Shown here: positions 2,608 to 16,776 of the stretch, in pieces
How the letters are laid out: each line of letters begins with the position of its first letter
Position numbering within the stretch: position 1 is the first letter of the stretch
Assembly (NCBI GenBank): GCA_964400685.1
Contig: CAYNVT010000001.1
Location: 41,845 to 105,844 of the forward strand
Origin: an uncultured Bacteriovoracaceae bacterium
GTDB lineage: Bacteria > Desulfobacterota > Desulfomonilia > UBA1062
Direction of reading: 5' to 3'
DNA length: 64,000 nt
Position numbers and translations under genes: made by a program
The notes under the pieces: model-generated
The model's input: only the letters and a program-made list of their open reading frames with translations
What the model was told of the DNA's origin: nothing
Database searches by the model: none

Positions 2608-3383
2608 ATATCGAAGCGGCGTATTATGTTATAGTGGCATTTTTCGGGCTCTTTATCGGGAGTTTCCTGAATGTATGCATCTACCGGATTCCGAGAGATC
2701 TTTCGATAGTATGGCCGGGTTCAAAATGTCCTGGCTGTGATACTCCTATCAGAGCATATGACAATATACCTGTTTTAAGCTGGATTATTCTTATGGGAAA
2801 ATGCAGGAAATGCGGGCAGAGGATCTCTGTCAGATACCCTGTTGTTGAGGCGCTGAGCTGTGTTATTTCGATAGTCTTTTTCCACAAGTACGGACTTACT
2901 CCTCAGTTTTTCATATATTATGCCTTCGCATGCGCGTTGATCGTTGTGACCTATATAGACCTCGATTTCCAGATTATTCCAGACAGGATTTCTCTGGGCG
3001 GCATTATTGTCGGGCTTGTTTGCGTATACTGGCTGCCTGTAAGCTATAAAGACTCTCTTATCGGTATGGTATTTGGAGGAGGGATTCTGCTTTCGATAAT
3101 CTATGGTTATTATTTCCTGACAAAAAAGCAGGGTATGGGTGGCGGAGATGTTAAGCTTCTTGCAATGATAGGAGTATTTACAGGATGGCAGGGTGTGCTG
3201 TTTACCCTTTTCGCTGCATCCCTGACCGGTTCAGTCATAGGTGTTGCCTGGGTTTACCTTAATCGCAAGGATATGAAGGCGGCCATTCCGTTCGGACCGT
3301 TTCTATCGATAGGGGCATTGATTTATATTCTATGGGGTCCGCCCATGATAAGCTGGTATTTCGGGGTCATGAGACATCCATAA
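2604..3383 (+). CDS. pilD: prepilin (type IV leader) peptidase, A24 family
   Basis: N-terminal FGLFIGSFLNVCIYRIP, a CPGC..CRKCG zinc motif and a polytopic membrane core with GGGDVKLLA. The start is TTG and overlaps the accA stop. Confidence 0.8.
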   Translation: MNIEAAYYVIVAFFGLFIGSFLNVCIYRIPRDLSIVWPGSKCPGCDTPIRAYDNIPVLSWIILMGKCRKCGQRISVRYPVVEALSCVISIVFFHKYGLTPQFFIYYAFACALIVVTYIDLDFQIIPDRISLGGIIVGLVCVYWLPVSYKDSLIGMVFGGGILLSIIYGYYFLTKKQGMGGGDVKLLAMIGVFTGWQGVLFTLFAASLTGSVIGVAWVYLNRKDMKAAIPFGPFLSIGALIYILWGPPMISWYFGVMRHP

Positions 3384-3818
3384 GATAAGCAGTCATTAAA
3401 TCTTTATTTCAAGTTCCTTCAGCCTTTTCGGTGCTTCAGTCCACATTTCAACTGCCCTCTCATTTTAGTGGTATCCGATGCCAGAGTCACTTGGGCATCC
3501 TGTCTAAAATCGGGCTTTTACCGGAATGTGCTAATGTTGTACAGACAACCTTTTTTATGTTGAAATATGCCATTTATAAGCAATCATTATGTCAGTTCTT
3601 AGAAATCAGCAAATATTACGAAAGATAAGTGAATTACAATAATGTTATCCAACCCGGTTTGTTTTTATGTAAAAGTATTGCTTTTTGATATGCTGCAATT
3701 ATTATTAAATATAAAGTTGAATTATAATAAAATATATATTATAGATATTTAAATTATTTATTAACATATTGGATATTATAAGTTAAACTATCATTTAATA
3801 GCTGGAGGCTTTAATTTA

Positions 3819-3923
3819 ATGTTTATTGTTTATTGGGATGTGAATGTAATATTGAGGCAGGGCGGTTGTTTGTCCAGAATTAATCCAAAGTACAAATCTA
3901 AAAAAATTATTAATAATTTATAG
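3819..3923 (+). CDS. 34-codon upstream small ORF (MFIVYWDVNVILRQGGCLSRINPKYKSKKIINNL); candidate leader peptide
   Basis: GGAGG at 3804-3808 lies 10 nt upstream of the ATG. Its TAG stop (3921-3923) overlaps the GGAGG Shine-Dalgarno of the downstream 629-aa gene. It lies in a very AT-rich tract and is not in the ORF track because it is under 60 aa. Confidence 0.3.
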   Translation: MFIVYWDVNVILRQGGCLSRINPKYKSKKIINNL

Positions 3924-3932
3924 GAGGTAATA

Positions 3933-5822
3933 ATGTTGAGGAGAAGACATGCATTGTATTTGGTAATTGGAATGACACTGTTTTTCATGTCATCAGGCTT
4001 TCTTGGCATGTGCGTCGGTACTGATTACAAACCGGCAACAATCTCCATCACAAGCCCGGTAAAAGGTACAGTAATTGAAACCGGAACGCCTGCCATAATA
4101 ATCTCCGGAAAGGTAACAGCAGGAGACAGTGAGATACAGACGCTGAAGGCCCAGGGAAAGGTGATTGCATTTAATAATACTACCGGGGCTTTTTCTTACC
4201 AGCTTACAATGAATCAGACTAAAATATTTACGACATGTGAATTTACAGTAATTGATAAAAAGGGGATTGCCAATATTGAAAGGGTTTCCTATTCACTCGG
4301 GCAGGCATCCGAACCCGGGTCAGTCGGCGTAATAGACAATGCAATGAGACTGGTATTGACTGATTCTCTTCTCGATCAGGTTGAGATATTTGCAGGTAAC
4401 TTCATGAATACATGGAAAAATGACCTTGTTTATGGATGGGATAATGCCAGATACGGTTCACAGAATCCTGAAAGCCCGTTCGCTTCAATGTCGCCTGTCA
4501 TACCAACAGCAAGAATACCATTCGATGACGGTATGGACGGGTGGATACAGCTGTCACAGGAATACAGCGCATCTCAGGACAAGGGATACATAAACCTGGG
4601 CAAGATTTCCATATCAACCGACATACTGCCCACCAACCAGATAGCAGCCGGAATATTGATTACCCCTGAAAGCTGGGTAAATCCAAGAGGCGGCAGCGCG
4701 AAGGCCTTATTTGTCCAGGGACACTACAGGACTTATCCTCTCGGTATTGAGACAAGAATACACTTTACGGTTTATACGAACCTGGTAAACGTCTCCAACG
4801 TCAAACTGGGGCTTGGCGTCAATTCCAACAATAAGATTGTTGCAAAGCTGGATTTAAGGCAGGCAGATATTGATCTTGGGAATCCAACAATAGAATTTGG
4901 AGTTTTGGATCTGGAAGATGATCTGATTAACTTCGTACTCGACATAGTCAAGTGTCTGGTGCTGGAAAAGCTGGCCATTGAAATGGAGGTTGTCGGCGTA
5001 AATGACATAGCATTCGATCTTCTTGGATTGAACATCAGCGGCTGGCCAATGATGAGCACCGTATTTACAACGCCGACAGCTGATCAGATGATTATTGATC
5101 TGGGCCTGTCCGCCAAGCTTGCTGAAGACACCACACCGGCCGTACCCGACCTCACGGCATTCTACTCAACGCTTCCAAATACTCAGCCTGCTATAAACAT
5201 GACGTCCAGTGAGAATATCGCAGTTGCGATTTCGGATGATCTGATGAACGAGGCGGCCTTTGACCTGATACAACTCGGTATACTGAAAAATATGGACCTT
5301 ACATCTTATGTAAGGGATCTGCTTGGCAATCTTGCTACCGGCAAGACTATCATTGCAAAAGCGACGCTTGTTACTCCTCCTGTATTTGACTTCTCGGGAA
5401 CTGAGGTCATGCCTGATGGCATTACCCAGGTCGGCAGAGTCATAGTCAAAGATCTGTATTTCGATCTTTATTATAAATCATCTCTGCCGCCCTATCCTTA
5501 TGCGGCAAGAATGTGTGTCGATGTCGACCTTGACCTGCAGCTGAAGCTTTCCGATGACGGAAAGCATATACAGGCAATGCTCGATGTTCCTGAAAGCAGC
5601 TTCACCATCAACTACCTGTATACAAACCTGACAAATGCGGCATTGCTGCCTGAAATCGGGGGCAAGCTCACGGTCACGATTCTTGATATCCTCCTTCAGA
5701 AGCTTGTAGACATTGATATCCCGACTATTGACCTCTTCGGTCAGGGCATAGCGATCGGCATATCGGACACGGCACTGGTTAACAACTGCCTTGTTGCAAA
5801 GGTTAATGTGGCGGTTCAGTAG
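3933..5822 (+). CDS. hypothetical secreted protein (signal peptide, possible lipoprotein), no recognisable family
   Basis: 629 aa. A strong RBS (tAGGAGGtaataATG), an N-terminal hydrophobic signal (LYLVIGMTLFFMSSGFLGMC) and a beta-rich composition. It is preceded by ~550 bp of AT-rich DNA and followed by a strong terminator. Confidence 0.6.
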   Translation: MLRRRHALYLVIGMTLFFMSSGFLGMCVGTDYKPATISITSPVKGTVIETGTPAIIISGKVTAGDSEIQTLKAQGKVIAFNNTTGAFSYQLTMNQTKIFTTCEFTVIDKKGIANIERVSYSLGQASEPGSVGVIDNAMRLVLTDSLLDQVEIFAGNFMNTWKNDLVYGWDNARYGSQNPESPFASMSPVIPTARIPFDDGMDGWIQLSQEYSASQDKGYINLGKISISTDILPTNQIAAGILITPESWVNPRGGSAKALFVQGHYRTYPLGIETRIHFTVYTNLVNVSNVKLGLGVNSNNKIVAKLDLRQADIDLGNPTIEFGVLDLEDDLINFVLDIVKCLVLEKLAIEMEVVGVNDIAFDLLGLNISGWPMMSTVFTTPTADQMIIDLGLSAKLAEDTTPAVPDLTAFYSTLPNTQPAINMTSSENIAVAISDDLMNEAAFDLIQLGILKNMDLTSYVRDLLGNLATGKTIIAKATLVTPPVFDFSGTEVMPDGITQVGRVIVKDLYFDLYYKSSLPPYPYAARMCVDVDLDLQLKLSDDGKHIQAMLDVPESSFTINYLYTNLTNAALLPEIGGKLTVTILDILLQKLVDIDIPTIDLFGQGIAIGISDTALVNNCLVAKVNVAVQ

Positions 5823-5843
5823 CTGATATACAGGCAATAGAGC

Positions 5844-5877
5844 AAAAAGGCGTCCGGTAATTGCCGGACGCCTTTTT
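5844..5877. terminator. bidirectional rho-independent terminator
   Basis: aaaaaGGCGTCCGGtaattgCCGGACGCCttttt: a 9-bp GC stem flanked by an A-run and a T-run. It sits between convergent genes; the minus-strand gene's stop codon overlaps the tail. Confidence 0.75.
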
Positions 5878-6769
5878 ATTTTCTGATGGTATCTCTGTTG
5901 ATGATTGTGACCGGGATTGTGACGTCCGATGTTTCAGATAATAATTTCCTGATATCGATGCCGCCGGATACAAGCACTTCAATTCTTATATTTGAAAATA
6001 CCCTGTATATGAATTCCATGCTTTCAAACGGGAGCGTATTCTTGTAGACCGTCTCAAAACGTGATTTCATTTTCGTCAGACCCTTGATAAGCAGCCGTAT
6101 TCTTGAGGCTGCCTCTTCATGATGCAATGATTCAAAAGCCCCTAAAAAAACGAAGTCAGTTCCTTCAAGTATTAGAAAATCGGCAGGGTAAGCTATCCTG
6201 TAAAATTCCTTTATAAACTGATTTTCAATGGGCAGCGGCTTCAGGTTGCGGCTCAGAAGATACTGCTGCAACTCTTCATCGCTGTGGAGCAATCCAAGCA
6301 GTCCATTCGCAGATGTCTTTAATAATGCCTCTTCAATTATTGTCTGTGCAATTGAGTGAAAATTATCAGGATAGTATAATATTGCGGGCAGCGGTGCAAA
6401 TTTTTCTGCCTCATGAACGGCCTTTTCAAGTGGAATAACGATCTTATCAAAAGCGAGCATTATGCCGTATGAAAGGTGAACATCAGCCGATCGCGCGAGA
6501 TTCTTATCAGTAAATACCAGACAGAACCGGGACGAGATGATCTTTGAACAAACCTGTTCACAAAACATTATTTTATCATGATCTGACAGCTCCGGCATAA
6601 CATAGACATTAAGACCCTTTGCCATGAACAGATCGTTGAGGGTGCTTATCTCCATTTCATACTTCACCTTATCAGGTACGGCGATGAACACGTTTTTTTC
6701 GGAGCCTGCGAAATGACCGCAATAGGGTAGATCCAGCATGCAGGATTTTTTTTGTATAGTCTTTTTCAT
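5876..6769 (-). CDS. hypothetical protein; N-terminal region loosely resembles a Rossmann, TIR or nucleoside-deoxyribosyltransferase-like fold (tentative)
   Basis: 297 aa, contiguous with the upstream gene (stop at 6770, start at 6769). No confident family match by eye. Confidence 0.45.
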   Translation of the reverse strand: MKKTIQKKSCMLDLPYCGHFAGSEKNVFIAVPDKVKYEMEISTLNDLFMAKGLNVYVMPELSDHDKIMFCEQVCSKIISSRFCLVFTDKNLARSADVHLSYGIMLAFDKIVIPLEKAVHEAEKFAPLPAILYYPDNFHSIAQTIIEEALLKTSANGLLGLLHSDEELQQYLLSRNLKPLPIENQFIKEFYRIAYPADFLILEGTDFVFLGAFESLHHEEAASRIRLLIKGLTKMKSRFETVYKNTLPFESMEFIYRVFSNIRIEVLVSGGIDIRKLLSETSDVTIPVTIINRDTIRK

Positions 6770-8038
6770 CTATGAAATGCCGTGGCGCTCGATCATATCA
6801 AGGACAAGAGCCGGCCATGTGAACATGTTCGCCCCTTTGCCGATGCCGGTTTCAGGGTCATAGAATTCGTGAAATCCATTGTTGGTAATAAGCCTTGCAG
6901 TCTTTGCGGTTATGGATGATGCGATATCCTTTCTCCCATAAATTGATGCGGCCTCTGCCGCAGCCCAGCTCATGCTTATCCATATGCATGGCCCCCGCCA
7001 GAGCATGGAATCCCTGAACCATTTCAGGTCATGCTCTTTTGCCGAATTGAACTGAACGCCAAAGTCGCAGGCGAAATGCTCAGTTGAATTTATATATCCT
7101 GTGATTACCCTCTCTGCCCGGTCAAATGATACCAGACCAGAAAGCAGAGGCATGATGCCGTTAAGGCAAGATCTGAAAACACAGACAGGTTTGGGTCTCA
7201 TCCATCTCGGGTAATAAAACCCTCTTCTTTCATCCCACAGCAGGTTTTCACAGGCATTGATAACCTCATCCGCCATGCCTTTGCATTTATCTGCATTCGC
7301 TCCATCCCCTGCTGCTGAAAAAAGCCTGGAGACCGCCATTGCCCCTGCCGCAACGAGACCATTCATTCCCGCGTCCTGGAATACGAAAGCCTCTTTTTCA
7401 AGAGCCGTTTTTCCGTTCCAGCCAAGCCGGGCGATTTCTTTAAGCTGCCTTAAATAGGCGAACGAATATCTTAAGAACCATGTCGGCCTTCGTACATCTA
7501 CTCCGCAGGCTTCATCGAAATAAGGCGCCGTATCGGTGCCCGATTCCCAAGGGTGGATTATGCACACCAGATTGTCACCCAAGAGGTCTCTTTCCCTCAT
7601 CAGGTAATCAAGGCATTTGAGCATTGAAGGGAGTAGCTTTAATATTCTTTCATCCCTGGTCCTGTTATAAACAATCTCTGCTGCGATGAGGTATGAAGGC
7701 GGGTCGATAAACCTGCTCCGGCCCGTGCTGTCGAATTGGACAGAGACGGACTTGATAAGAATCTTCCTGAAAAGGGATTCACTATTCCCAAGGCCTTCTA
7801 TTCTGGCCTCGTGCGGTACAAGACCGGTTTTAAGCTGGAAAGAGAAAACCGCTTCCAGTTCTCTCACGGCAAGTTCGGGCTCGATTACCGAAAGCGCAAT
7901 TGCATGCCAGCCTGAATCCCACGCGAAAAACGACTGGTAGGAACCCGGCGCGGGCTGGTGAAACGTTAGGCCCTGCCAGTTGACGAAGTTTTTTTCAAAC
8001 ACGTCCCGGGCCTGCTTTATAAGGTGTTCTTCTGTCAT
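6770..8038 (-). CDS. six-hairpin (alpha/alpha)6 glycoside-hydrolase-like protein (GH63, glycogen-debranching-enzyme (GDE) or mannosylglycerate-hydrolase-like; tentative)
   Basis: 422 aa. The FFAWDSGWHAIAL motif and overall composition are typical of six-hairpin glycosidases. Its start overlaps the stop of the upstream exonuclease gene by 4 nt. Confidence 0.45.
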   Translation of the reverse strand: MTEEHLIKQARDVFEKNFVNWQGLTFHQPAPGSYQSFFAWDSGWHAIALSVIEPELAVRELEAVFSFQLKTGLVPHEARIEGLGNSESLFRKILIKSVSVQFDSTGRSRFIDPPSYLIAAEIVYNRTRDERILKLLPSMLKCLDYLMRERDLLGDNLVCIIHPWESGTDTAPYFDEACGVDVRRPTWFLRYSFAYLRQLKEIARLGWNGKTALEKEAFVFQDAGMNGLVAAGAMAVSRLFSAAGDGANADKCKGMADEVINACENLLWDERRGFYYPRWMRPKPVCVFRSCLNGIMPLLSGLVSFDRAERVITGYINSTEHFACDFGVQFNSAKEHDLKWFRDSMLWRGPCIWISMSWAAAEAASIYGRKDIASSITAKTARLITNNGFHEFYDPETGIGKGANMFTWPALVLDMIERHGIS

Positions 8039-9345
8039 CCCTTAACCCTGTCCGAGCCGATATTCTTCAGAATCAGCCGTTTGCGGCGATGTTCAAAAGA
8101 GGCCTTTTCATCTTCTGTAAGAAGCTCATATCTCAATGCCTGTTCAACGAGGTCAAGCGCCCGTCCGATATCATGGCTCCTGTGCTCACAGAACTTGGCA
8201 AGTTCAATCAGAGCGAATATGTCGCAGCTGTCCGAAGATACTATATCTTCCCACAAACAGACAGCCTCCTGCCATTGTTCGGATTTTTTGTGCATCAGAG
8301 AGAGCATCTTTTTTGCTTCCTTTGCATATGAAAGATCATCGATTCCGGCTATTGATTTAATCATTGCCCTCATAAGTTCATGGTTTCCCTGGTCATTATG
8401 AAGTTTTGCCGCAGCCAGGATATCTCCGGGATGGGCTTTATCAATGCCGTTTCCCGATACCACCTCTGATAGATGGCTGAGCAGCGTCGCCATCGATACG
8501 ATATCGAAGCGGTTGTGCTCGAAGACATCTCCCATGAGCGATGGATTTCGGGTCCTCAGCCAGTCGAAATAACGCTGCGGGATTTCCGAACCCGGAACAT
8601 CGCCGGTCCTCCTGAAACCCAGCACCTCGTCTTCAAGCGTTACCAGCCTGCAGTTGGTTGTGCGGTGCGAAAGAAGCCTGCGTGAGGGATTGAGAAGATC
8701 AAGGTGCGGCATGGATTTCATAGAGTCTTCGAGACGGTTCAATATAAAACGAGCCGAGAGCAGGTTCAAATCAAAGGCCCTGCCGTTGAACGAGACCAGG
8801 AACTTCTTCTCGGCTGCGCTCTCGTTCAGGAAGACGAGCATGGCTTTTTCATCGGAATAGTCCCTGGCGAAAAGCTGGCATGTAATGAAATCATCACCCT
8901 CGAAGAATCCGAGTCCGATCAGGAAAGGCAGCGTCCCGGTACCTCCTGCAAGCCCTGTTGTCTCGGTATCGAAAAAAAGGGCATCGTGAGGGTTGAAGCC
9001 TCCAATTGCAGAATGGCGTGCGAGGATTGAAGCGGCCTGCATGTTAATTTTCAGGCATTCTCTGATAAGTTTGCCGCCGTGCCGCGAATCGGCCCTGAAT
9101 CTGTTCCTGGAAAAAAAGAACTCACCGTGGTTGTTGCTCACGACCTCGCCTGAAAGTGCAGTTTCAATTGGAACTGAAGCTTTCAGCGTCCGGCTCTGAG
9201 GCCTTTGCTGTATCCTGGTGCCCCTGGCCATTATGGCGTCTATTCTACGCCTGAGCTCTTCAAGGCTGGGTTTATTAGCAGCTGCTCCCTGCTTTGATTT
9301 AGGACCTTCACCTGTAAGTCTTTTCAGTCTGTCTATTGTACTCAT
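8035..9345 (-). CDS. mrfB: MrfB (YprB)-like DEDDh 3'-5' exonuclease with C-terminal TPR-like helical domain
   Basis: Exo I FFDTETTGL, Exo II SFNGRAFDLNLL and Exo III FEHNRFDIVSMATL motifs, then an alpha-helical repeat C-terminus. This architecture matches B. subtilis YprB/MrfB. Confidence 0.6.
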   Translation of the reverse strand: MSTIDRLKRLTGEGPKSKQGAAANKPSLEELRRRIDAIMARGTRIQQRPQSRTLKASVPIETALSGEVVSNNHGEFFFSRNRFRADSRHGGKLIRECLKINMQAASILARHSAIGGFNPHDALFFDTETTGLAGGTGTLPFLIGLGFFEGDDFITCQLFARDYSDEKAMLVFLNESAAEKKFLVSFNGRAFDLNLLSARFILNRLEDSMKSMPHLDLLNPSRRLLSHRTTNCRLVTLEDEVLGFRRTGDVPGSEIPQRYFDWLRTRNPSLMGDVFEHNRFDIVSMATLLSHLSEVVSGNGIDKAHPGDILAAAKLHNDQGNHELMRAMIKSIAGIDDLSYAKEAKKMLSLMHKKSEQWQEAVCLWEDIVSSDSCDIFALIELAKFCEHRSHDIGRALDLVEQALRYELLTEDEKASFEHRRKRLILKNIGSDRVKG

Positions 9346-9423
9346 GCGTTAATCAGCGTAGGTCGAACGCTGAGTTATGTCAACAGCCGGGAACATTATC
9401 TAAGAGAGCCCGTCAGTTTATTT

Positions 9424-10698
9424 TCAGACAAAAAAGATCATCCCTAAAGATATGCATGTCATCATTATGGCGGCGGGCAGGATATAGCGTCTTAGTCCCG
9501 GGCTGCCCATGAATATGACCATCAAACCCTTGGTGGCTGTGTTTGTGGCCGCGGCCAGGATAATTCCGGTTGCAGCGCTTGTCGCATCGAGAGCGCCCTG
9601 GCCTGAATTCATCTTGGCGAGCGTTATGGATATGGCGTCAACGTCTGCGATGCCTGCAAGAACACTGGATACTAGCACTCCGCTGCTGCCCCAGTTCATC
9701 TGGGCGAATTTTGATATGACCAGAATAATGGAAACCAGTATTGCAAAGCTTATTGCTGGCCACAACTCGAACGGGTTGGCAAAGGATACCTCAGCTGCGT
9801 TGTCTGCACGCCCGGCTTTTTTATAAAGCCAGAAACAATAGACGAGCCCAACTACCACCGGTACCAGCATAGGCAGGATGAGCCTTTCGGCCAGGGGCAT
9901 ATTCAACACCCCAACTATCACGATGATCCTGCCGAACATGACAGTCCATGCAATCGTTATTGCGAGGGCGAAGTTTTTTGCCAGCGTCTGCGCCTGCCTG
10001 CTCTGCTGCGTACATGAAAGGGTAAGTGCGGTGGATGACGCCAGCCCGCCCAACAGGCCGGTAAGGCCCATGCCCTTTGAAGGGCCGATCACTTTTATGA
10101 GTATGTAACCTATGAAACTGATGCCAGAAATCAGAATGACCAGAAGCCAAATGTTGAAGGGGTTGATCTGGTTGAACGGTTCCGGGCCGAATGTCCTGTT
10201 CGGAAGTATGGGAAGGATGATAGCGGTTATGACCGCGAACTTGAGTGTTGCAAACAGGTCTTCCCTGGACATGCGTTCCACTATGCCGTGGAGTTCCGGT
10301 TTTATGGATAAGAGCAGCATCGTCATGACGCCAAGTGCACCTGCTATTGCGATCTGGCCGTAATTGCACATGATGCCGCATATAAACGCGATCAGAGCCG
10401 ACACTTCGCCCGTAATGCCTGATTTCTGGTTGAGTGTGTCCGCATACTGAGTCACGGCGAGGATAATGCCGAAGGAACCTATCGTGATGATGAGCGGAAG
10501 GATACTGTGTGTGATATCCGATACAAAGGCGGAGGCGCAGCCCAGAAGCGAAATAAGCGCAAACGTCCTTATCCCGGCGGTGTGCTCCCTTTCCTCGCCC
10601 CTGCTGAATGAGAACTCGCGCTGCATGCCTATGAGGATGCCTATGAGGAGCGCAACGCCGAACCTTAAAAACAGATACGGATCCTGCTGTATGGTCAT
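9424..10698 (-). CDS. MgtC/SapB-family membrane protein with DUF4010-like C-terminal domain
   Basis: 424 aa polytopic membrane protein with N-terminal ALLIGILIGMQREFSF, an MgtC-like signature. Confidence 0.55.
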   Translation of the reverse strand: MTIQQDPYLFLRFGVALLIGILIGMQREFSFSRGEEREHTAGIRTFALISLLGCASAFVSDITHSILPLIITIGSFGIILAVTQYADTLNQKSGITGEVSALIAFICGIMCNYGQIAIAGALGVMTMLLLSIKPELHGIVERMSREDLFATLKFAVITAIILPILPNRTFGPEPFNQINPFNIWLLVILISGISFIGYILIKVIGPSKGMGLTGLLGGLASSTALTLSCTQQSRQAQTLAKNFALAITIAWTVMFGRIIVIVGVLNMPLAERLILPMLVPVVVGLVYCFWLYKKAGRADNAAEVSFANPFELWPAISFAILVSIILVISKFAQMNWGSSGVLVSSVLAGIADVDAISITLAKMNSGQGALDATSAATGIILAAATNTATKGLMVIFMGSPGLRRYILPAAIMMTCISLGMIFFV

Positions 10699-10858
10699 AA
10701 TATCCTTATCGGTTTATAAGCCGATTTATTCAATATTTATGTTGAGTTTATGGGATTAGAGAAATCCGGCAACATAAATTCTTTACAGTTTCATGACTGG
10801 GCTGTAATCTTGATCAACAGATTAATTCAGCTCATTCAAACCAGAAGACGGAGAAGAC

Positions 10859-13210
10859 ATGGCTCAACTCACTTTAAGGGAATGGATTGCAAGGGTCGAG
10901 AACGACAGGCGGTTCATGGAAAATGTCACCGCCTTCAAGAAGATCGATGCTTCATCGGGAGGTTTTTCTCCTTATCCTGAGTGGGTGGACAGAAGAATAA
11001 GAAAAGTGCTCGAAGCCCGGGGGATAAAAAAACTTTACAGCCATCAGTCGGATGCAGTCGAACTGGTGAGGAAAGGCCGAGATGTTGTCCTTGTAACACC
11101 TACGGCCAGCGGAAAGACTCTGTGCTACAATATCCCGGTACTTCAGGCTATCATTGAAAAGCCCGAGACCAGGGCCCTTTACATGTTCCCGACAAAGGCA
11201 CTCGCGCAGGACCAGATGCAGGAGGTCCACAGCCTGATAACCGAGCTCGATATGAATATCAAAACCTTCACCTATGACGGCGACACGCCCGATGATGCCC
11301 GGCAGGCTATCCGCAGGCAGGGCCATATCGTTATTACAAACCCTGACATGCTGCATACCGGCATTCTGCCGCACCATACGAAGTGGCAGAAACTCTTCGC
11401 CAACCTTAAATATATAGTGGTCGACGAGCTTCATATCTACCGCGGGATATTCGGCAGCCACCTTGCAAATGTCTTCAGAAGGCTAAGGCGCATATGCAAT
11501 TTTTACGGGAGCAACCCGGTGTTCATCTGTTGTTCGGCAACCGTTGCCAACCCCAGGGAGCATTCCGAAGCCGTGCTCGGGCGCGAGGCCGAGCTTATTG
11601 ACAAGAGCGGTGCGCCGCGAGGGGAAAGGACGGTTATCCTTTATAATCCGCCTGTGGTGAACCGCGAACTCGGCATCAGACAAAGCGCCATGGTTCCTGC
11701 GCGCGAAATCGCAAAAAGCCTTGTTGATAACGGTATCCAGACAATAATCTTTGCGACCTCAAGGCTAAATGTCGAGGTCCTGACGAAATATCTGAAGGAC
11801 GCGTTTGCTCAGGGCAAGCTTCCCGATGACAGCCGTTTCATTTCAGGCTACAGGGGCGGCTATCTGCCTGAGACAAGGCGCGAGATCGAAAAGGGCCTCA
11901 GGGATAAAGAGGTGATGGGTGTTGTCAGCACGAATGCGCTTGAGCTTGGCATAGACATCGGGAATCTGGAAGCGTGTATAATGACGGGGTATCCAGGTTC
12001 GATTGCAAGCCTCTGGCAGCAGGCGGGCCGGGCGGGCCGCAAGAAGGATGCGAGCCTTGCCGTACTTGTGGGCAAGAGCATGCCGGTCGATCAGTTCATG
12101 ATGGAAAACCCGGATTTTCTTTTCGGCAGTCCGCCCGAGCACTGCCGGATAAACCCTGATAATCTCCTGATATTGCTTCATCACATTAAGTGCGCTGCGT
12201 TCGAGTTGCCGTTTACTGAAGGAGAAAACTTCGGGAACGAAAATATAAAGGAGATACTCGACTATCTTGCCGAAAAAGGTGTTCTCCACAAGGCGGGCGA
12301 ACAATGGCATTTTTCCGCCGACAGCTATCCCGCTGATGATGTGAGCCTGCGTACGGTCAATCCGGACAATGTCGTGGTGGTTGATGAAACAGTTACCGGC
12401 TCAAGCAGGATAATTGCCGAAGTGGACTTCGACAGCGCGTTCACTACGGTTCATGAGGGTGCTATCTACATGCTGGAATCAAGGCAATACCATGTGGACC
12501 ACTTCGATGTCGAGAGGCGCAAAGCCTATGTCCATCAGGTGGACTCCGACTATTATACAGATGCCATGACCTGGACGAATGTCAGTGTGCTGGACGAATT
12601 TTCGAACAAAAAAAGCGGAGTAATAACAGTGGGCCACGGCGAGGTCGAGGTCGTGAGGAAGGTGGCCGGTTTCAAAAAGATAAAATTCTATACCGGCGAA
12701 AATGTAGGGTTCGGCGATGTAAACCTGCCGCAGAACGACATGCATACTACCAGCTATTGGTTCACCATCCCCTGGAATATGCTCGATACCCTTGAAATCA
12801 CGCGTGGACAGATACTGGACGGCCTGATGGGGCTGAGCTATTGTCTGCATCAGCTTGCGGCCATCTGGCTCATGTCTGATGTGCGTGATATAGACCGCGC
12901 TATCGGAGACAAGACCGGCCAGTGGTACATTAAAGGCGGCAGGGACAGGCTGGCTACAACTCAGAGCGCGGAAACGCCGGTTGGCCTTTTCGACCCCACG
13001 ATATTCATTTTTGACGCATACCCCGGCGGCATCGGCTTTTCAGAACTTTTATATGAGATGCACGAAGACATACTTGTTCATGCCAGAACGCTTATTAATG
13101 TCTGCCCCTGTGAAAACGGCTGCCCCTCGTGCGTGGGCCCGCGCCTTGAAGTGGGTCCCGATGCAAAGTATGCCGCCCTTGAGATACTGCAATTGATTCT
13201 GGGAAAATAA
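10859..13210 (+). CDS. mrfA: MrfA (YprA)-like DExH-box helicase with C-terminal DUF1998 four-cysteine zinc domain
   Basis: 783 aa. Walker A TPTASGKT, a DELH box, the QQAGRAGR motif and a C-terminal CPCENGCPSCVGP. These align closely with my recollection of B. subtilis YprA. Confidence 0.85.
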   Translation: MAQLTLREWIARVENDRRFMENVTAFKKIDASSGGFSPYPEWVDRRIRKVLEARGIKKLYSHQSDAVELVRKGRDVVLVTPTASGKTLCYNIPVLQAIIEKPETRALYMFPTKALAQDQMQEVHSLITELDMNIKTFTYDGDTPDDARQAIRRQGHIVITNPDMLHTGILPHHTKWQKLFANLKYIVVDELHIYRGIFGSHLANVFRRLRRICNFYGSNPVFICCSATVANPREHSEAVLGREAELIDKSGAPRGERTVILYNPPVVNRELGIRQSAMVPAREIAKSLVDNGIQTIIFATSRLNVEVLTKYLKDAFAQGKLPDDSRFISGYRGGYLPETRREIEKGLRDKEVMGVVSTNALELGIDIGNLEACIMTGYPGSIASLWQQAGRAGRKKDASLAVLVGKSMPVDQFMMENPDFLFGSPPEHCRINPDNLLILLHHIKCAAFELPFTEGENFGNENIKEILDYLAEKGVLHKAGEQWHFSADSYPADDVSLRTVNPDNVVVVDETVTGSSRIIAEVDFDSAFTTVHEGAIYMLESRQYHVDHFDVERRKAYVHQVDSDYYTDAMTWTNVSVLDEFSNKKSGVITVGHGEVEVVRKVAGFKKIKFYTGENVGFGDVNLPQNDMHTTSYWFTIPWNMLDTLEITRGQILDGLMGLSYCLHQLAAIWLMSDVRDIDRAIGDKTGQWYIKGGRDRLATTQSAETPVGLFDPTIFIFDAYPGGIGFSELLYEMHEDILVHARTLINVCPCENGCPSCVGPRLEVGPDAKYAALEILQLILGK

Positions 13211-13244
13211 ATCCTGATCTGAATAAATCAGGGTTATAATCAAT

Positions 13245-14585
13245 TTAATTATCGATTAGCAGAATCCTGACATCCATTACATTTGTTCGCGTAGGACCTG
13301 TCACGAGCAGATCGCCTGTCTCTTTCAGGAAATTATATGAATCATTGTCTTGAAGGTATGTATCGATATCGAGCCCCTTTGCTTTTCCTCGCGCAGCTGT
13401 TCTGGTATCGACAATTCCTCCGGCCGCATCTGTCGGGCCGTCCGAGCCGTCTGTTCCTCCGCTGAGAACAATGATGTTTTTATCCATGCCGGCGATTTCT
13501 TTTGCGGAAACGAGGGCGAATTCCTGGTTGCGCCCTCCCTTGCCGCTTCCTTTTATCTTCACCGTGGTTTCGCCTCCGCTGATTATGCAGGCGGGAAGAC
13601 TGGCGGAATTGCCTGAAAGGATTATCTGCCGGGCGATCGTGATATGCGCAAGAGCTACTTCTGTCGTATCGCCTTCAATGGCCGAAGAAAGGAGTATTGT
13701 GTGGTAGCTTGTCGATTCTGCCTCTTTCTTTGCTGCAGTGCAGGCCATAAGATTACTGCCGATAATTATGTTCGTTATCTTCTCGAAGATGGGATCTCCT
13801 GCCTTTGGCGTTTCCGGAATACAGCCTTCAGAACCTGCCTTGAGTCTTTCAATTACACTTGCAGGGAGCCTGTCTATGAGATCATATTTATTGATAATTC
13901 CCATTGCGTTATCGAACGAAGACCTGTCAGGTACAAATGGGCCCGAGGCGATTACATCCATGTCATCTCCAATGACATCTGAGAGCATAAGATTAATAAC
14001 CGTTGCAGGATATGCTATTCTGGCAAGCCCGCCACCTTTTGAAGATGAAAGGTGCTTTCTTACTGTATTTATTTCATGAATATCCGCCCCGCATTTGAGC
14101 ATCTCATCAGTTACTTTTCTTTTCTCGGCTAGTGATATTCCCTGAGCCGGCATCGGCAGAAGAGCTGAGCCTCCGCCTGATATGAGAGAGATAACGAGGT
14201 CGTTTTCCGTGCATGCATCAAGGAGATCGGAAATCTTCTGAGTCCCGGCCAAACCGTTCTCATCCGGTACCGGGTGACCTGCCTCGATAAGTTCGATTTT
14301 ATCAAGCTGTATGCCATAGCCGTACTTGATAACAACTGTCCCTTTGTTTATCCTGTCTCCCAGGATGGATTCAACAGCCTTCGCCATGGGTGCCGATGCC
14401 TTGCCTGCACCGACAACGACAACCCTGTGGTATTCATTCAGGTTGTATTTTTTATCGCCTGCGCTCAGCGTGTGATTGGTTAATGTCAGGAAAGATCTTA
14501 CCGCATTTTCAGGATCGACCGCAGCAACAGCGGCCTTGAATATTTTTATTGCATCATCTCTCATACTCGATGTCTTATCCGGCAT
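13245..14585 (-). CDS. glycerate 2-kinase, MOFRL family
   Basis: VVGAGKASAPMA and a MOFRL C-terminus. I prefer the ATG at 14585, preceded by GGAGG, over the ORF-track start at 14642. Confidence 0.8.
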   Translation of the reverse strand: MPDKTSSMRDDAIKIFKAAVAAVDPENAVRSFLTLTNHTLSAGDKKYNLNEYHRVVVVGAGKASAPMAKAVESILGDRINKGTVVIKYGYGIQLDKIELIEAGHPVPDENGLAGTQKISDLLDACTENDLVISLISGGGSALLPMPAQGISLAEKRKVTDEMLKCGADIHEINTVRKHLSSSKGGGLARIAYPATVINLMLSDVIGDDMDVIASGPFVPDRSSFDNAMGIINKYDLIDRLPASVIERLKAGSEGCIPETPKAGDPIFEKITNIIIGSNLMACTAAKKEAESTSYHTILLSSAIEGDTTEVALAHITIARQIILSGNSASLPACIISGGETTVKIKGSGKGGRNQEFALVSAKEIAGMDKNIIVLSGGTDGSDGPTDAAGGIVDTRTAARGKAKGLDIDTYLQDNDSYNFLKETGDLLVTGPTRTNVMDVRILLIDN

Positions 14586-14699
14586 TGAGCCACCTCCGTC
14601 GATCTGACTGACAATAAATGTTATCATGAGAAAAATGTTCATACCATAAATATATCAGGCTCGTTGACATGGGATTGTTATTTCCTTAAGGTACCAGAC

Positions 14700-15296
14700 A
14701 TGCAGATAATCCTTGCATCAGCTTCGCCCAGGAGGAAGGAATTGCTCAAATATCTGGGGATTGAATTTGATATTATAATTCCGGACATACATGAACATTC
14801 CCATGAAAATGAGCCTCCTGAAGCCTTTTGCGCCCGTATCAGCAGGGAAAAGGCCCTTGCGGTAAGAAAGGGGTTTCAGGATTCTCTTATAATTGCGGCT
14901 GACACCATAGTTGTCATCGATGGCGAGATTCTAGGCAAGCCGAAAAGCAGCGATGATGCATGTTCATACCTCAGACGTTTAAACGGCAGGCGGCACACTG
15001 TGTTTACGGCCTACACAATATTATTCCCTAATGGAGATAGTGAGGTGACCAGGGTTGTAAGTTCAACAGTTCACTTTGCCGATATGAGGGAAGATGATAT
15101 CATGTGGTATGTTTCTACGGGTGAACCCATGGATAAGGCGGGAGCATACGGTCTCCAGGGAATAGGGGCGGCATTTGTGGACGCAATTGACGGTTCTTAT
15201 ACCAATGTCATAGGCCTTCCCCTCTCGGAAGTGTTTAAGGATATCAAACCTTATATAATGCTTAAAAAAAATATCTCAGGAGGTATCAATGCGTAA
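14700..15296 (+). CDS. maf: Maf-like nucleoside triphosphate pyrophosphatase / septum formation protein
   Basis: MQIILASASPRRKELL...; the likely start is the ATG at 14700 within the longer ORF. Confidence 0.85.
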   Translation: MQIILASASPRRKELLKYLGIEFDIIIPDIHEHSHENEPPEAFCARISREKALAVRKGFQDSLIIAADTIVVIDGEILGKPKSSDDACSYLRRLNGRRHTVFTAYTILFPNGDSEVTRVVSSTVHFADMREDDIMWYVSTGEPMDKAGAYGLQGIGAAFVDAIDGSYTNVIGLPLSEVFKDIKPYIMLKKNISGGINA

Positions 15297-16776
15297 GTTC
15301 ATCATGGCTATTGACCAGGGAACAACAGGTACAAGGGTGATGATTGTTGATAAGAAGGGCACAATCGTGACAAGCGCCTATACCGAATTTCCCCAGATCT
15401 ACCCGAAGCCTGGATGGGTGGAACACAATGCCGAGATAATATGGGATTCGACAATACAGGTCATGAACCAGGCATTCAAGGATGCAGATATAACGGCAGC
15501 AAACATTTTAGGGATTGGAATAACCAACCAGAGAGAGACCTCGGTTGTCTGGGACAGAAAAACTTTGAAACCCGTGCACAACGCCATCGTCTGGCAATGC
15601 AGAAGAAGCGCCGGTATTTGCGATGAGATGAAGGAAAAAGGGCTTGAGCCGGTTTTCAAGAAAAAGACAGGCCTTGTGCTCGATGCATATTTTTCCGGTA
15701 CAAAGGTGAAATGGCTGCTGGACGAGCATCCCGAAATCAGGAGTAGGGCTGAAGCCGGTGAGCTAGCATTCGGAACCATAGATACATGGATTATTACCAA
15801 ACTCACCGGGGGAAGAGTTCATGTGACTGATTATACGAATGCTTCACGCACTCTTATGTATAATATCCATGAAAAGAAGTGGGATGATGAACTGCTTGAG
15901 CATCTGGGTATCCCCGCATCGCTTCTGCCCAAGGTTGTTTCGTCATCAGAGATTGTCGGTGAAAGCGATCCGCATGTCACAGGCGCTGCAATACCGATTG
16001 CGGGGATTGCCGGCGATCAGCAGGCGGCGCTCTTCGGACAGGGATGTTTTTTGGAAGGTCAGGCGAAGAATACTTACGGCACCGGTTGCTTCATGCTCTT
16101 GAATATCGGCAATAAAAAGGTGGAACCTGAAAGCGGGCTTATTCTGACGCTCGCATGTGACAATGAAGGAAAGCCCTGCTATGCAATGGAAGGGTCCATC
16201 TTTATCGGAGGAGCGGTAATGCAGTGGCTGAGGGACGGCCTGGGACTGGTGTCGTCTGCGGCGGAATCGCAGGCCATTGCCGAGAGCGTGAAAGACACGG
16301 ACGGAGTATATTTTGTTCCCGCCTTTGCTGGCCTGGGCGCTCCCTACTGGGATATGTATGCGAGGGGAGGGATTCTGGGTATCACAAGGGGAACGACGCG
16401 CGCCCATATCATAAGGGCGGCGCTTGAAGGCATTGCTTTCCAGGTCAAGGACCTGATAGGCGCATTCGAGAGCGTAACAGGAGAGAAATTCACTGAGTTG
16501 AGGGTCGATGGAGGCGCGTGCAAGAATAATTTCCTCATGCAGTTCCAGGCTGATACGCTGGGATGTCCGATAGACCGTTCATCGTATATCGAATCAACGG
16601 GAATGGGTGCAGCGTTTCTTGCCGGAATGGCTACAGGTTTCTGGCCTTCGAGTGGAGAGATAAAAAATCTTAGAAAATCGGACAAGGTTTTTTATCCGAA
16701 AATAAATGAAGAATCACGGACAAGGATGTATGACGGCTGGATTGATGCAATCGGCAGAGTAAAGAGCAGGGTTTGA
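15289..16776 (+). CDS. glpK: glycerol kinase
   Basis: 495 aa, near-collinear with E. coli GlpK (AIDQGTT, YPKPGWVEH, GITNQRET, VWQCRR, HVTDYTNASRT). Confidence 0.92.
   Translation: MRKFIMAIDQGTTGTRVMIVDKKGTIVTSAYTEFPQIYPKPGWVEHNAEIIWDSTIQVMNQAFKDADITAANILGIGITNQRETSVVWDRKTLKPVHNAIVWQCRRSAGICDEMKEKGLEPVFKKKTGLVLDAYFSGTKVKWLLDEHPEIRSRAEAGELAFGTIDTWIITKLTGGRVHVTDYTNASRTLMYNIHEKKWDDELLEHLGIPASLLPKVVSSSEIVGESDPHVTGAAIPIAGIAGDQQAALFGQGCFLEGQAKNTYGTGCFMLLNIGNKKVEPESGLILTLACDNEGKPCYAMEGSIFIGGAVMQWLRDGLGLVSSAAESQAIAESVKDTDGVYFVPAFAGLGAPYWDMYARGGILGITRGTTRAHIIRAALEGIAFQVKDLIGAFESVTGEKFTELRVDGGACKNNFLMQFQADTLGCPIDRSSYIESTGMGAAFLAGMATGFWPSSGEIKNLRKSDKVFYPKINEESRTRMYDGWIDAIGRVKSRV

Follow-up and report, generated by a model that had tools for sequence, protein, structure and literature searches.

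MrfA and MrfB (YprA and YprB), which make up the mitomycin-C repair pathway of B. subtilis, have been regarded as a repair module of two genes, with the YprA repair branch set apart from the defence branches (PMC11194089; bioRxiv 10.1101/2025.09.15.676423). The catalytic residues of the exonuclease MrfB and its wedge residue Leu113 were listed in PMC11194089. Among MGH1-like glycoside hydrolases (GH), D182 and E419 act as the catalytic acid and base of MhGgH (PMC6608630). When cells recover from nitrogen starvation, the nearest characterised relatives of the hydrolase described below degrade glucosylglycerate and mannosylglycerate, which are compatible solutes (PMC6608630 among others); its solved relatives bind small cytoplasmic glycosides in a closed pocket, not nucleic acids (PMC6608630).

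Here, we analysed a 64,000-nucleotide stretch of bacterial DNA (the window), in which an mrfB gene is followed by a glycosidase gene and a gene for a TIR-like protein. The most probable reading, to which we give a probability of about 0.65, is that a MrfA/MrfB repair pair was rearranged in one shallow Desulfomonilia-type clade and that two unrelated genes were appended to it.

Operon anatomy

Three minus-strand open reading frames make up the triplet as it had been annotated, namely 5876-6769(-) encoding 297 aa, 6770-8038(-) encoding 422 aa, and 8035-9345(-) encoding 436 aa. The 4-nt overlap claimed between the mrfB stop and the GH start is present as ATGA, and the claimed abutment is also found, as the 297-aa frame begins with an ATG immediately after the GH stop codon TAG. 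This long start of the 297-aa frame is the real one, because Cys10 is conserved family-wide and the same GH/TIR-like abutment occurs in two related loci, L001 and L004. The strong terminator proposed at 5844-5877 was confirmed as a bidirectional intrinsic terminator with a 15-bp stem (8 G-C pairs) and a 4-nt loop, flanked by an A-run and a T-run. Its folding energy is far beyond that of shuffled sequence (RNA MFE -26.2 kcal/mol, z = -8.1; 0 of 200 shuffles fold equally well), and it is common to the triplet and a convergent 629-aa gene at 3933-5822(+). Judged from these junctions, mrfB, the GH gene and the TIR-like gene form a single tightly coupled operon. An Rfam scan of positions 3000-14000 at E <= 0.1 gave no matches.

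The description as a three-gene operon holds for the anatomy of the triplet, but it omitted an MgtC/DUF4010 gene and a full-length MrfA gene next to it. The former (9424-10698, minus strand) encodes a 424-aa membrane protein with Pfam matches to DUF4010 (5.7e-60) and MgtC (6.3e-19); it lies 78 nt upstream of mrfB, between mrfB and the divergent promoter region. It occupies the same position in L001 and L004 and is absent from the canonical mrfAB operon of L005. In the MgtC-mrfB spacer, the best-conserved block among the window, L001 and L004 is a promoter-like element at 9355-9383 (minus strand), consisting of TTGACA, a 17-nt spacer and TACGCT. Since this element ends 9 nt before the mrfB ATG and no Shine-Dalgarno sequence precedes that ATG, the mrfB transcript is predicted to be near-leaderless. 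A consensus sigma-70 scan found promoter-like sites no commoner than in shuffled sequence and missed the conserved element, whose -10 matches the consensus at 3 of 6 positions. The divergent intergenic region between mrfA and the MgtC/DUF4010 gene contains an inverted repeat, TTACAG-N13-CTGTAA, at 10783-10807, which is invariant in the three-genome alignment while its flanks vary and is a candidate shared operator.

The MrfAB pair

The first gene of the triplet (8035-9345, minus strand) encodes a 436-aa MrfB/YprB 3'-5' DEDDh exonuclease with a Pfam match to RNase_H_2 (2.5e-37). Its MrfB-like identity was borne out by PDB entry 8UN9, 'Exonuclease MrfB', with E = 1.7e-29 over residues 101-295. 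All five catalytic DEDDh residues were found by alignment to B. subtilis MrfB, with D126, E128, D192, H277 and D281 corresponding to D107, E109, D172, H258 and D262, and wedge residue L132 aligns to L113. The protein has many homologues (n=3930), which include full-length ones at about 50% identity that carry PF13428 TPR_14 and bear the JGI name 'YprB with RNaseH-like and TPR domain'; the window protein itself had no Pfam TPR match at E <= 0.01. By analogy with B. subtilis, it is predicted to be a 3'-5' DNA exonuclease that depends on Mg2+/Mn2+ and takes part in the repair of mitomycin-C adducts.

The locus had been regarded as unusual on the premise that mrfB lacked its mrfA partner. This premise was wrong: a complete MrfA/YprA SF2 helicase gene of 783 aa (10859-13210, plus strand) lies 1.5 kb from mrfB in divergent orientation, an arrangement kept in L001 and L004. 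The protein matches Pfam DEAD (5e-36), Helicase_C, WHD_HRQ1 (3e-10) and MZB, the MrfA Zn-binding domain (9e-15), as well as TIGR03817 (1.3e-201), and it shows strong similarity (phmmer E = 0) to the L005 helicase, which is encoded in an overlapping mrfA-mrfB operon.

The GH63-type hydrolase

The second gene (6770-8038, minus strand) encodes a 422-aa GH63-type (MGH1-like) alpha-glycoside hydrolase that is probably cytoplasmic. The earlier glycosidase-like call was well founded, as the protein matches Pfam MGH1-like_GH (PF22422, 2.4e-49) over profile positions 5-355 of 356, and its profile (A2) matches 2Z07 (TTHA0978/MgH) at 6e-48 and mycobacterial GgH at 1.8e-23. According to the alignment, the catalytic acid Asp169 (HPWESGTD) and base Glu391 (HEFYDP) are intact; within profile A2, E391 is invariant and D169 nearly invariant. 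No N-terminal signal peptide was evident by eye in the translation.

The enzyme is assigned on sequence grounds to the MGH1-like group and not to GgH or MgH, because it reaches only 94.5 bits against the cutoff of 550 of the NCBIfam glucosylglycerate-hydrolase equivalog (GluglyHdase), and the glycerate (+1 subsite) contacts of MhGgH are not conserved in the alignment. Specifically, W40, Q115 and Y375 of MhGgH are replaced by F, D and L, and its glycerate contacts Y88 and R216 align to non-equivalent residues. Members of this small, patchily distributed subfamily come from Desulfomonilia-type MAGs, Spirochaetes, Asgard archaea and Actinomycetota. A nearby DUF4147/MOFRL glycerate-kinase-type gene was considered as a partner of the GH, but it more likely reflects ancestral synteny, because the GH-less L006 has a member of that gene family some 8 kb away from its mrfB, and the flanks of L004 contain none.

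The TIR-like protein

The 297-aa protein (5876-6769, minus strand), which had been described as belonging to no recognisable family, turned out to belong, as a diverged member, to a TIR/NDT-fold family that comprises 187 representative clusters. It consists of three parts: a Cys-rich N-terminus (C10, C17, C70, C74), a domain at residues ~24-155 for which a TIR/flavodoxin-like fold of the TIR / nucleoside-2-deoxyribosyltransferase type was found, and a C-terminal alpha/beta domain that gave no structural match. Cys10 is conserved across the whole family. The window protein has no direct Pfam match and does not exceed the gathering score of PF10137 (24.7 bits), which only distant relatives pass (P0260, 32.0; P0262, 30.0; P0369, 29.6 bits).

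The wider family has an invariant Glu in the motif PNxNVxxEYG, whereas in the window clade this position is occupied by S or L (Ser100, in DVHLSYG) and preceded by an 8-residue deletion. Its topology (opening turns of the helix that follows strand C) and the general features of these families suggest that the invariant Glu is the TIR/NDT catalytic Glu. Sequence alone gave no anchor for its column in a solved TIR, because the family profile (A3) had only non-significant matches among PDB sequences (PycTIR, E = 1.7; SAC3, E = 0.15). Near the window gene, no CD-NTase, pyrimidine cyclase or fused STING/SAVED was found, and the 81 wider-family loci showed no recurrent neighbour, with only duplicate contigs clustering. 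The GC content of the gene is only mildly lower than that of the window (0.41 versus 0.46). A 266-aa Pfam-less gene, located after a 53%-identical GH in L007, was rejected as a distant homologue of the 297-aa protein (hhalign probability 0.5%, BLASTP E = 15).

Distribution and conservation of the linkage

We defined the block as five genes: mrfA, MgtC/DUF4010, mrfB, GH and TIR-like. The full block was present in three genomes, those of the window, L001 and L004. Conservation of the triplet, on which the earlier reading had been made to depend, was only partly upheld: its closest relatives retain it, but its distribution is shallow and it is absent from the wider GH and TIR-like loci. No MrfB, MrfA, MgtC or TIR-like gene was found within 8 kb of 78 of the 80 species-representative GH loci; the two that carry an MrfB, MrfA or TIR-like gene are both from Desulfomonilia-type MAGs. 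Likewise, 80 of 81 loci of the TIR-like family lack a GH, the single exception belongs to the same lineage, and MrfB is found at none of the 81. Among the surveyed loci, none of the three families is linked to the other two outside this clade.

MrfB orthologues at 62%, 55% and 52% identity are not accompanied by a GH, and the 55% one lies in a canonical overlapping mrfA-mrfB operon. Such GH-less loci include L006, L171 and L005, the last with overlapping mrfA and mrfB and no MgtC gene; as read from its gene order, L005 displays the ancestral state.

In L001 and L004, the five-gene block is kept together with the promoter block and the coupling junctions. The outer flanks differ in L004, which has a mechanosensitive-channel gene after the block. 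Purifying selection acts on all genes (dN/dS 0.04-0.19). Between the window and L004, dS is 1.0-1.6, so synonymous sites are beyond saturation, yet the operon architecture is intact. The surroundings of the locus are syntenic housekeeping genes (dnaE, accA, guaB, hypEF), and no mobile-element genes were found there.

Some of these observations speak against operon accretion. The mrfB/GH overlap, the GH/TIR-like abutment and the promoter block outlasted the dS 1.0-1.6 divergence while the outer flanks changed, a persistence greater than purely neutral accretion predicts. Genes with tight translational coupling usually have to be co-expressed in stoichiometric amounts, which also counts against accretion; the full block is known from only three genomes, a thin sample.

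Interpretation

In the rearranged locus that we propose, mrfA now faces away from the MgtC/DUF4010 gene and from mrfB. The latter leads a unit of three cistrons, which has a conserved promoter-like element, a predicted near-leaderless start, translational coupling between stop and start codons, and a strong terminator; the GH and TIR-like genes would have been appended to this unit by operon accretion. By analogy with B. subtilis, MrfB may act with MrfA, the helicase unwinding around a bulky adduct and the 3'-5' exonuclease removing the damaged strand. The predicted substrate of the GH is an alpha-glucoside or alpha-mannoside, small and cytoplasmic. Glucosylglycerate itself is an improbable one, given the differences at several aglycone-contact residues. 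The TIR-like protein would no longer cleave NAD or nucleotides in the canonical way and may have a ligand-binding or scaffolding role. Co-transcription would then reflect accretion, with at most shared stress-type regulation, rather than a single biochemical pathway.

A deliberate co-expression of distinct functions, for example in recovery from starvation, osmotic or Mg2+ stress, is unlikely. Under it, breakdown of compatible-solute-type glycosides by the GH, MgtC-type homeostasis and DNA repair by MrfAB would be required together, with the TIR-like protein as a small-molecule-binding regulator. The role of the nearest characterised GH relatives in recovery from nitrogen starvation would fit, as would the MgtC/DUF4010 gene inside the block, the mechanosensitive-channel gene after it in L004, the conserved inverted repeat in the divergent region common to mrfA, and the coupling junctions conserved under purifying selection. 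However, the aglycone contacts of GgH and its equivalog model both fail for this GH, and the same families are not co-located outside the clade. Quite improbable, in our judgement, is a module whose joint target would be glycosylated nucleic acid or nucleotides, in which the TIR-like protein would bind a modified nucleotide or base, the GH would remove the sugar, and MrfB with MrfA would excise or degrade the strand. The 297-aa protein does share the fold of nucleotide N-glycosidases (NDT, MilB, BcmB, TIR NADases), the translational coupling is tight and conserved, and the TPR domain of MrfB is without a known partner (PMC11194089); but the TIR-like protein has lost the invariant Glu of its family, the solved GH relatives hold small glycosides in a closed pocket, the carrier clade is shallow, and the families do not co-occur elsewhere. 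Highly improbable is the specific version in which the mrfB-GH-TIR-like operon encodes a three-component machine whose Glu-less TIR-like protein recognises a sugar-modified nucleotide, DNA lesion or nucleotide signal, for the GH to deglycosylate and for MrfB and MrfA to excise the strand; if true, it would represent an undescribed repair or restriction route for glycosylated DNA.

Least probable of all is anti-phage defence, with a TIR-like sensor/effector, a nuclease and a YprA-family helicase. Models of CBASS/Pycsar TIR effectors are matched by distant members of the 297-aa family, one of which lies near toxin-antitoxin-type genes, but the window protein has no such match and has lost the putative catalytic Glu. 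PADLOC returned no system-level or protein-level match for the triplet, the 297-aa and 422-aa proteins having none, beyond a marginal generic DEDDh match to MrfB (E = 0.0088). The architecture of MrfA is that of the repair branch (WHD_HRQ1 + MZB), no insertion of a defence-type domain was detected in it, and its match at phmmer E = 0 is to the helicase of a canonical mrfAB operon, that of L005. The housekeeping context without mobile-element genes or a cyclase, and the only mildly lower GC, also stand against defence.

Returning to the remodelled repair operon, the gene identifications and operon anatomy of the first-pass annotation were correct, and the outcomes by which it expected to fail did not occur outright, as a strong glycosidase match, the DEDDh residues and retention of the triplet by its closest relatives were all found. 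Its functional reading, a repurposed nucleic-acid-targeting module or a defence-like system, is not supported: mrfA is present, the linkage is shallow, PADLOC is negative, the context is housekeeping genes, and the GH relatives act on small glycosides. Nothing at the locus points to a new nucleic-acid or defence system. What looked like an orphaned MrfB in an odd operon would be an ordinary MrfAB pair, with an operon that a single shallow clade has remodelled; the nearby MrfA had been missed, and the false lead is cleared up. Two by-products emerged, neither of which changes the understanding of MrfAB repair or bacterial defence. One is an uncharacterised family of ~190 clusters combining a Cys cluster, a TIR/NDT-fold domain and a C-terminal domain; most members keep the putative catalytic Glu, while one subclade lost it and became translationally coupled to a glycosidase, possibly an example of a TIR-like enzyme turned non-catalytic. 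The other is the small, patchy MGH1-like GH subfamily, with an aglycone pocket unlike that of characterised glucosyl- and mannosyl-glycerate hydrolases.

Comparison with known systems

Compared with the TIR domains of CAP12/Pycsar (PF10137), the window protein lacks a PF10137 match, has Ser/Leu in place of Glu and carries the 8-residue deletion; unlike those systems, it is not accompanied by a STING, SAVED or cyclase partner. It differs from them, and from NDT, MilB, BcmB and SARM1, by its N-terminal Cys cluster and unmatched C-terminal domain. Along its whole length (6e-48), the GH has the (alpha/alpha)6 catalytic domain of GgH/MgH (MhGgH, 5OHC; Thermus TTHA0978, 2Z07). It also has their acid Asp (WESGxD), base Glu and -1 subsite residues Tyr, Trp, Asp and Trp, as well as a similar size and a probable cytoplasmic location.

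With B. subtilis MrfAB, the domain content of both proteins agrees. The DnaQ-type DEDDh core, the five catalytic residues, the wedge Leu and a putative helical C-terminal extension of MrfB are the same, as is the DEAD/Helicase_C + WHD + MZB/DUF1998 organisation of MrfA, and the two genes are neighbours. The two genes do not form a two-gene operon as in B. subtilis: mrfA in the window is divergent, the MgtC/DUF4010 gene lies in between, and behind mrfB come two additional cistrons with translational coupling.

Organization of the mrfB operon

The triplet lies on the minus strand and consists of an mrfB ORF of 436 aa (8035-9345), a glycoside hydrolase (GH) ORF of 422 aa (6770-8038), and an ORF of 297 aa (5876-6769) whose product has a TIR/nucleoside-2-deoxyribosyltransferase (NDT) fold and is termed TIR-like. 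The mrfB stop overlaps the GH start in the motif ATGA, and the TAG stop of the GH gene directly abuts the ATG of the 297-aa ORF. At 5844-5877, a bidirectional terminator hairpin with a stem of 15 bp folds at -26.2 kcal/mol as RNA (z = -8.1 against shuffles), and since an A-run and a T-run stand at its two sides, it would serve both the triplet and a convergent 629-aa gene (3933-5822, plus strand). The first-pass annotation had thus placed the three ORFs, the 4-nt overlap, the abutment and the strong terminator exactly. The 629-aa protein has a hydrophobic N-terminus and gave no match in Pfam, NCBIfam or PADLOC; its gene is kept in L001, a locus of one relative carrying the full block, and, on the P0016 contig, beside a homologue 59% identical to the 297-aa protein, and is absent from L004, a locus of a second such relative. 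The interval upstream of it (3400-3930) is low in GC, ~0.35.

The 436-aa product, annotated earlier as MrfB/YprB-like, matches Pfam RNase_H_2 at 2.5e-37 and the solved core of Bacillus subtilis MrfB (8UN9) at 1.7e-29. The catalytic DEDDh of MrfB was experimentally defined as D107, E109, D172, H258, and D262, with L113 as the wedge (PMC11194089), and all five catalytic residues are present in the window protein (D126, E128, D192, H277, and D281; wedge L132). On this basis it is a true MrfB/YprB. A complete MrfA helicase (10859-13210, plus strand; DEAD, Helicase_C, WHD_HRQ1, and MrfA Zn-binding domains; TIGR03817 at 1.3e-201) had been overlooked earlier, so that MrfB is not separated from its partner. 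The gene divergent from mrfA, encoding an MgtC/DUF4010 membrane protein (9424-10698, minus strand) 78 nt upstream of mrfB, had also escaped notice.

The spacer between the MgtC gene and mrfB contains a promoter-like element on the minus strand, TTGACA, 17 nt, TACGCT (9355-9383), which is kept in all three genomes (window, L001, and L004, the last with TACGTT). A gap of 9 nt separates its end from the mrfB ATG, which no Shine-Dalgarno precedes, so that the mrfB mRNA may be leaderless or nearly so; the element is probably the triplet's own promoter. The divergent genes for MrfA and the MgtC/DUF4010 protein stand 160 bp apart, and between them an inverted repeat, TTACAG-N13-CTGTAA (10783-10807), is invariant across the three genomes while its flanks vary, making it a candidate operator that may co-regulate both divergent arms. 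A scan of 3000-14000 at E <= 0.1 found no Rfam family.

Glycoside hydrolase

The suspicion of a glycosidase fold in the 422-aa protein was confirmed by a strong match to PF22422 (2.4e-49), and with a family profile the protein aligned end to end with Thermus TTHA0978 (2Z07; 6e-48), which we take to be a mannosylglycerate hydrolase, as well as with the mycobacterial glucosylglycerate hydrolase (GgH) at 1.8e-23. The protein is accordingly placed, from its sequence, as a GH63-type MGH1-like hydrolase. It shares the catalytic pair of the glucosylglycerate and mannosylglycerate hydrolases, the acid Asp and base Glu of characterised relatives (PMC6608630) being retained as D169 and E391, whereas several residues that hold glycerate or position substrate differ from GgH, and the NCBIfam equivalog for GgH scores far below cutoff (94.5 vs 550 bits). 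For these reasons we would call it a presumably active alpha-glycosidase, not a GgH. No signal peptide was obvious by eye in its translation; some longer forms of the subfamily have a TAT signal.

Outside the clade, the nearest GH relatives reach 45-58% identity only (L012-L042) and are scattered among Spirochaetes, Asgard (Promethearchaeota) archaea, other Thermodesulfobacteriota, and Actinomycetota, a patchy pattern which suggests that the subfamily may have spread horizontally. Anaerolineae loci L043-L048 carry two paralogous copies in tandem. Past mrfA lie a DUF4147/MOFRL (glycerate-kinase-type) gene (13245-14642, minus strand) and an FGGY sugar kinase (15289-16776, plus strand), which are suggestive because the GH relatives release glycerate and hexose. 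However, a MOFRL gene also occurs near mrfB in L006, a locus without the GH, and is absent from the L004 flanks, which counts against the link.

TIR-like protein

The 297-aa protein is a member of a Cys-rich TIR/NDT-fold family, so far uncharacterised, that comprises ~190 clusters. Most members (P0259-P0407; L090-L170) are encoded by stand-alone genes of ~320 aa whose contexts vary, and no Pfam model spans the whole family. These proteins combine an N-terminal Cys cluster, the TIR/NDT-fold domain, and a C-terminal alpha/beta domain without a match; there are also members (e.g., P0312, P0365, and P0377) in which the TIR-like domain forms the C-terminal end of a longer protein. Cys10, Cys17, Cys70, and Cys74 are conserved throughout the alignment and may form a metal site. 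In distant members, the motif PNxNVxxEYG includes an invariant Glu, which lies in the helix after strand C and is probably the counterpart of the catalytic Glu of TIR/NDT proteins. Ser or Leu takes its place in the window clade, immediately preceded by a deletion of 8 residues.

Conservation and genomic context

The block of mrfA facing MgtC-mrfB-GH-TIR-like recurs in the NCBI MAG of L001/L010 (proteins 83-95% identical) and the Desulfomonilia MAG of L004/L011 (66-93%). In L004 the outer flanks are unlike the window's, and the junctions are retained but altered (TGATG at mrfB/GH; TGA-ATG at GH/TIR-like). Purifying selection acts on all five genes (dN/dS 0.04-0.19), and the TIR-like gene has changed fastest. 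The triplet proposed earlier is a conserved unit, but only inside one shallow clade; beyond it the association is gone. Thousands of full-length MrfB homologues (~50% identity) occur in genomes of Syntrophales and of the Desulfomonilia type, and six MrfB contexts were sampled. In L005 (MrfB 55% identical), mrfA and mrfB overlap in a canonical operon and an unrelated hydrolase comes next; in L006 (52%) the MrfB stands alone; and in L171 (62%) the next gene is unrelated and 391 nt away. MrfB, MrfA, MgtC, or TIR-like genes were absent within 8 kb of the GH in 78 of 80 species-representative GH loci, the other two being the MAGs of L001/L010 and L004/L011. Three further GH contexts likewise showed no such link; one candidate neighbour there proved unrelated. 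Among 81 wider TIR-like-family loci, the GH is present at one only (L091, 66% identical, same lineage as the window), MrfB is near none, and no neighbour recurs.

Housekeeping genes surround the block (dnaE, accA, prepilin peptidase, Maf, FGGY kinase, mlaE, and hypEF). GC is 0.50 in mrfB and GH, 0.41 in the TIR-like gene, and 0.46 in the window. Homologues of every protein carry the names Desulfomonilia, Syntrophales, or Deltaproteobacteria, and the Bacteriovoracaceae label of the closest species-level genome (GCA_964513375.1, L001/L010) looks doubtful; the next closest is Desulfomonilia.

Origin and possible function

The best-supported reading, at a probability of about 65%, is that the known repair pair MrfAB had its operon remodelled in one lineage: mrfA would have been inverted, the MgtC gene interposed, and two unrelated genes, GH and TIR-like, accreted downstream of mrfB. 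A variant invoking shared stress regulation is rather unlikely. Some room is left for a real functional tie among the triplet genes, since the tight coupling persists past dS > 1.

The first-pass annotation had proposed a repurposed nucleic-acid-targeting module or a defence-like system. Curiously, the third protein has the fold of a nucleotide N-glycosidase, which recalls the former idea; however, the invariant Glu is lost, the relatives of the GH have a small-molecule pocket, and the families do not co-occur elsewhere, which makes a nucleic-acid module very improbable and an anti-phage role slightly more so. PADLOC gave no match for the triplet, and a recent survey of YprA-family proteins assigns MrfAB to a repair branch apart from the defence branches, with no mention of a glycosidase or TIR partner (bioRxiv 10.1101/2025.09.15.676423). 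Side findings of modest specialist interest are an atypical MGH1-like subfamily and the Cys-rich TIR/NDT-fold family, one subclade of which lacks the Glu. What is new here is a lineage-specific arrangement of the MrfAB locus, not a new system.
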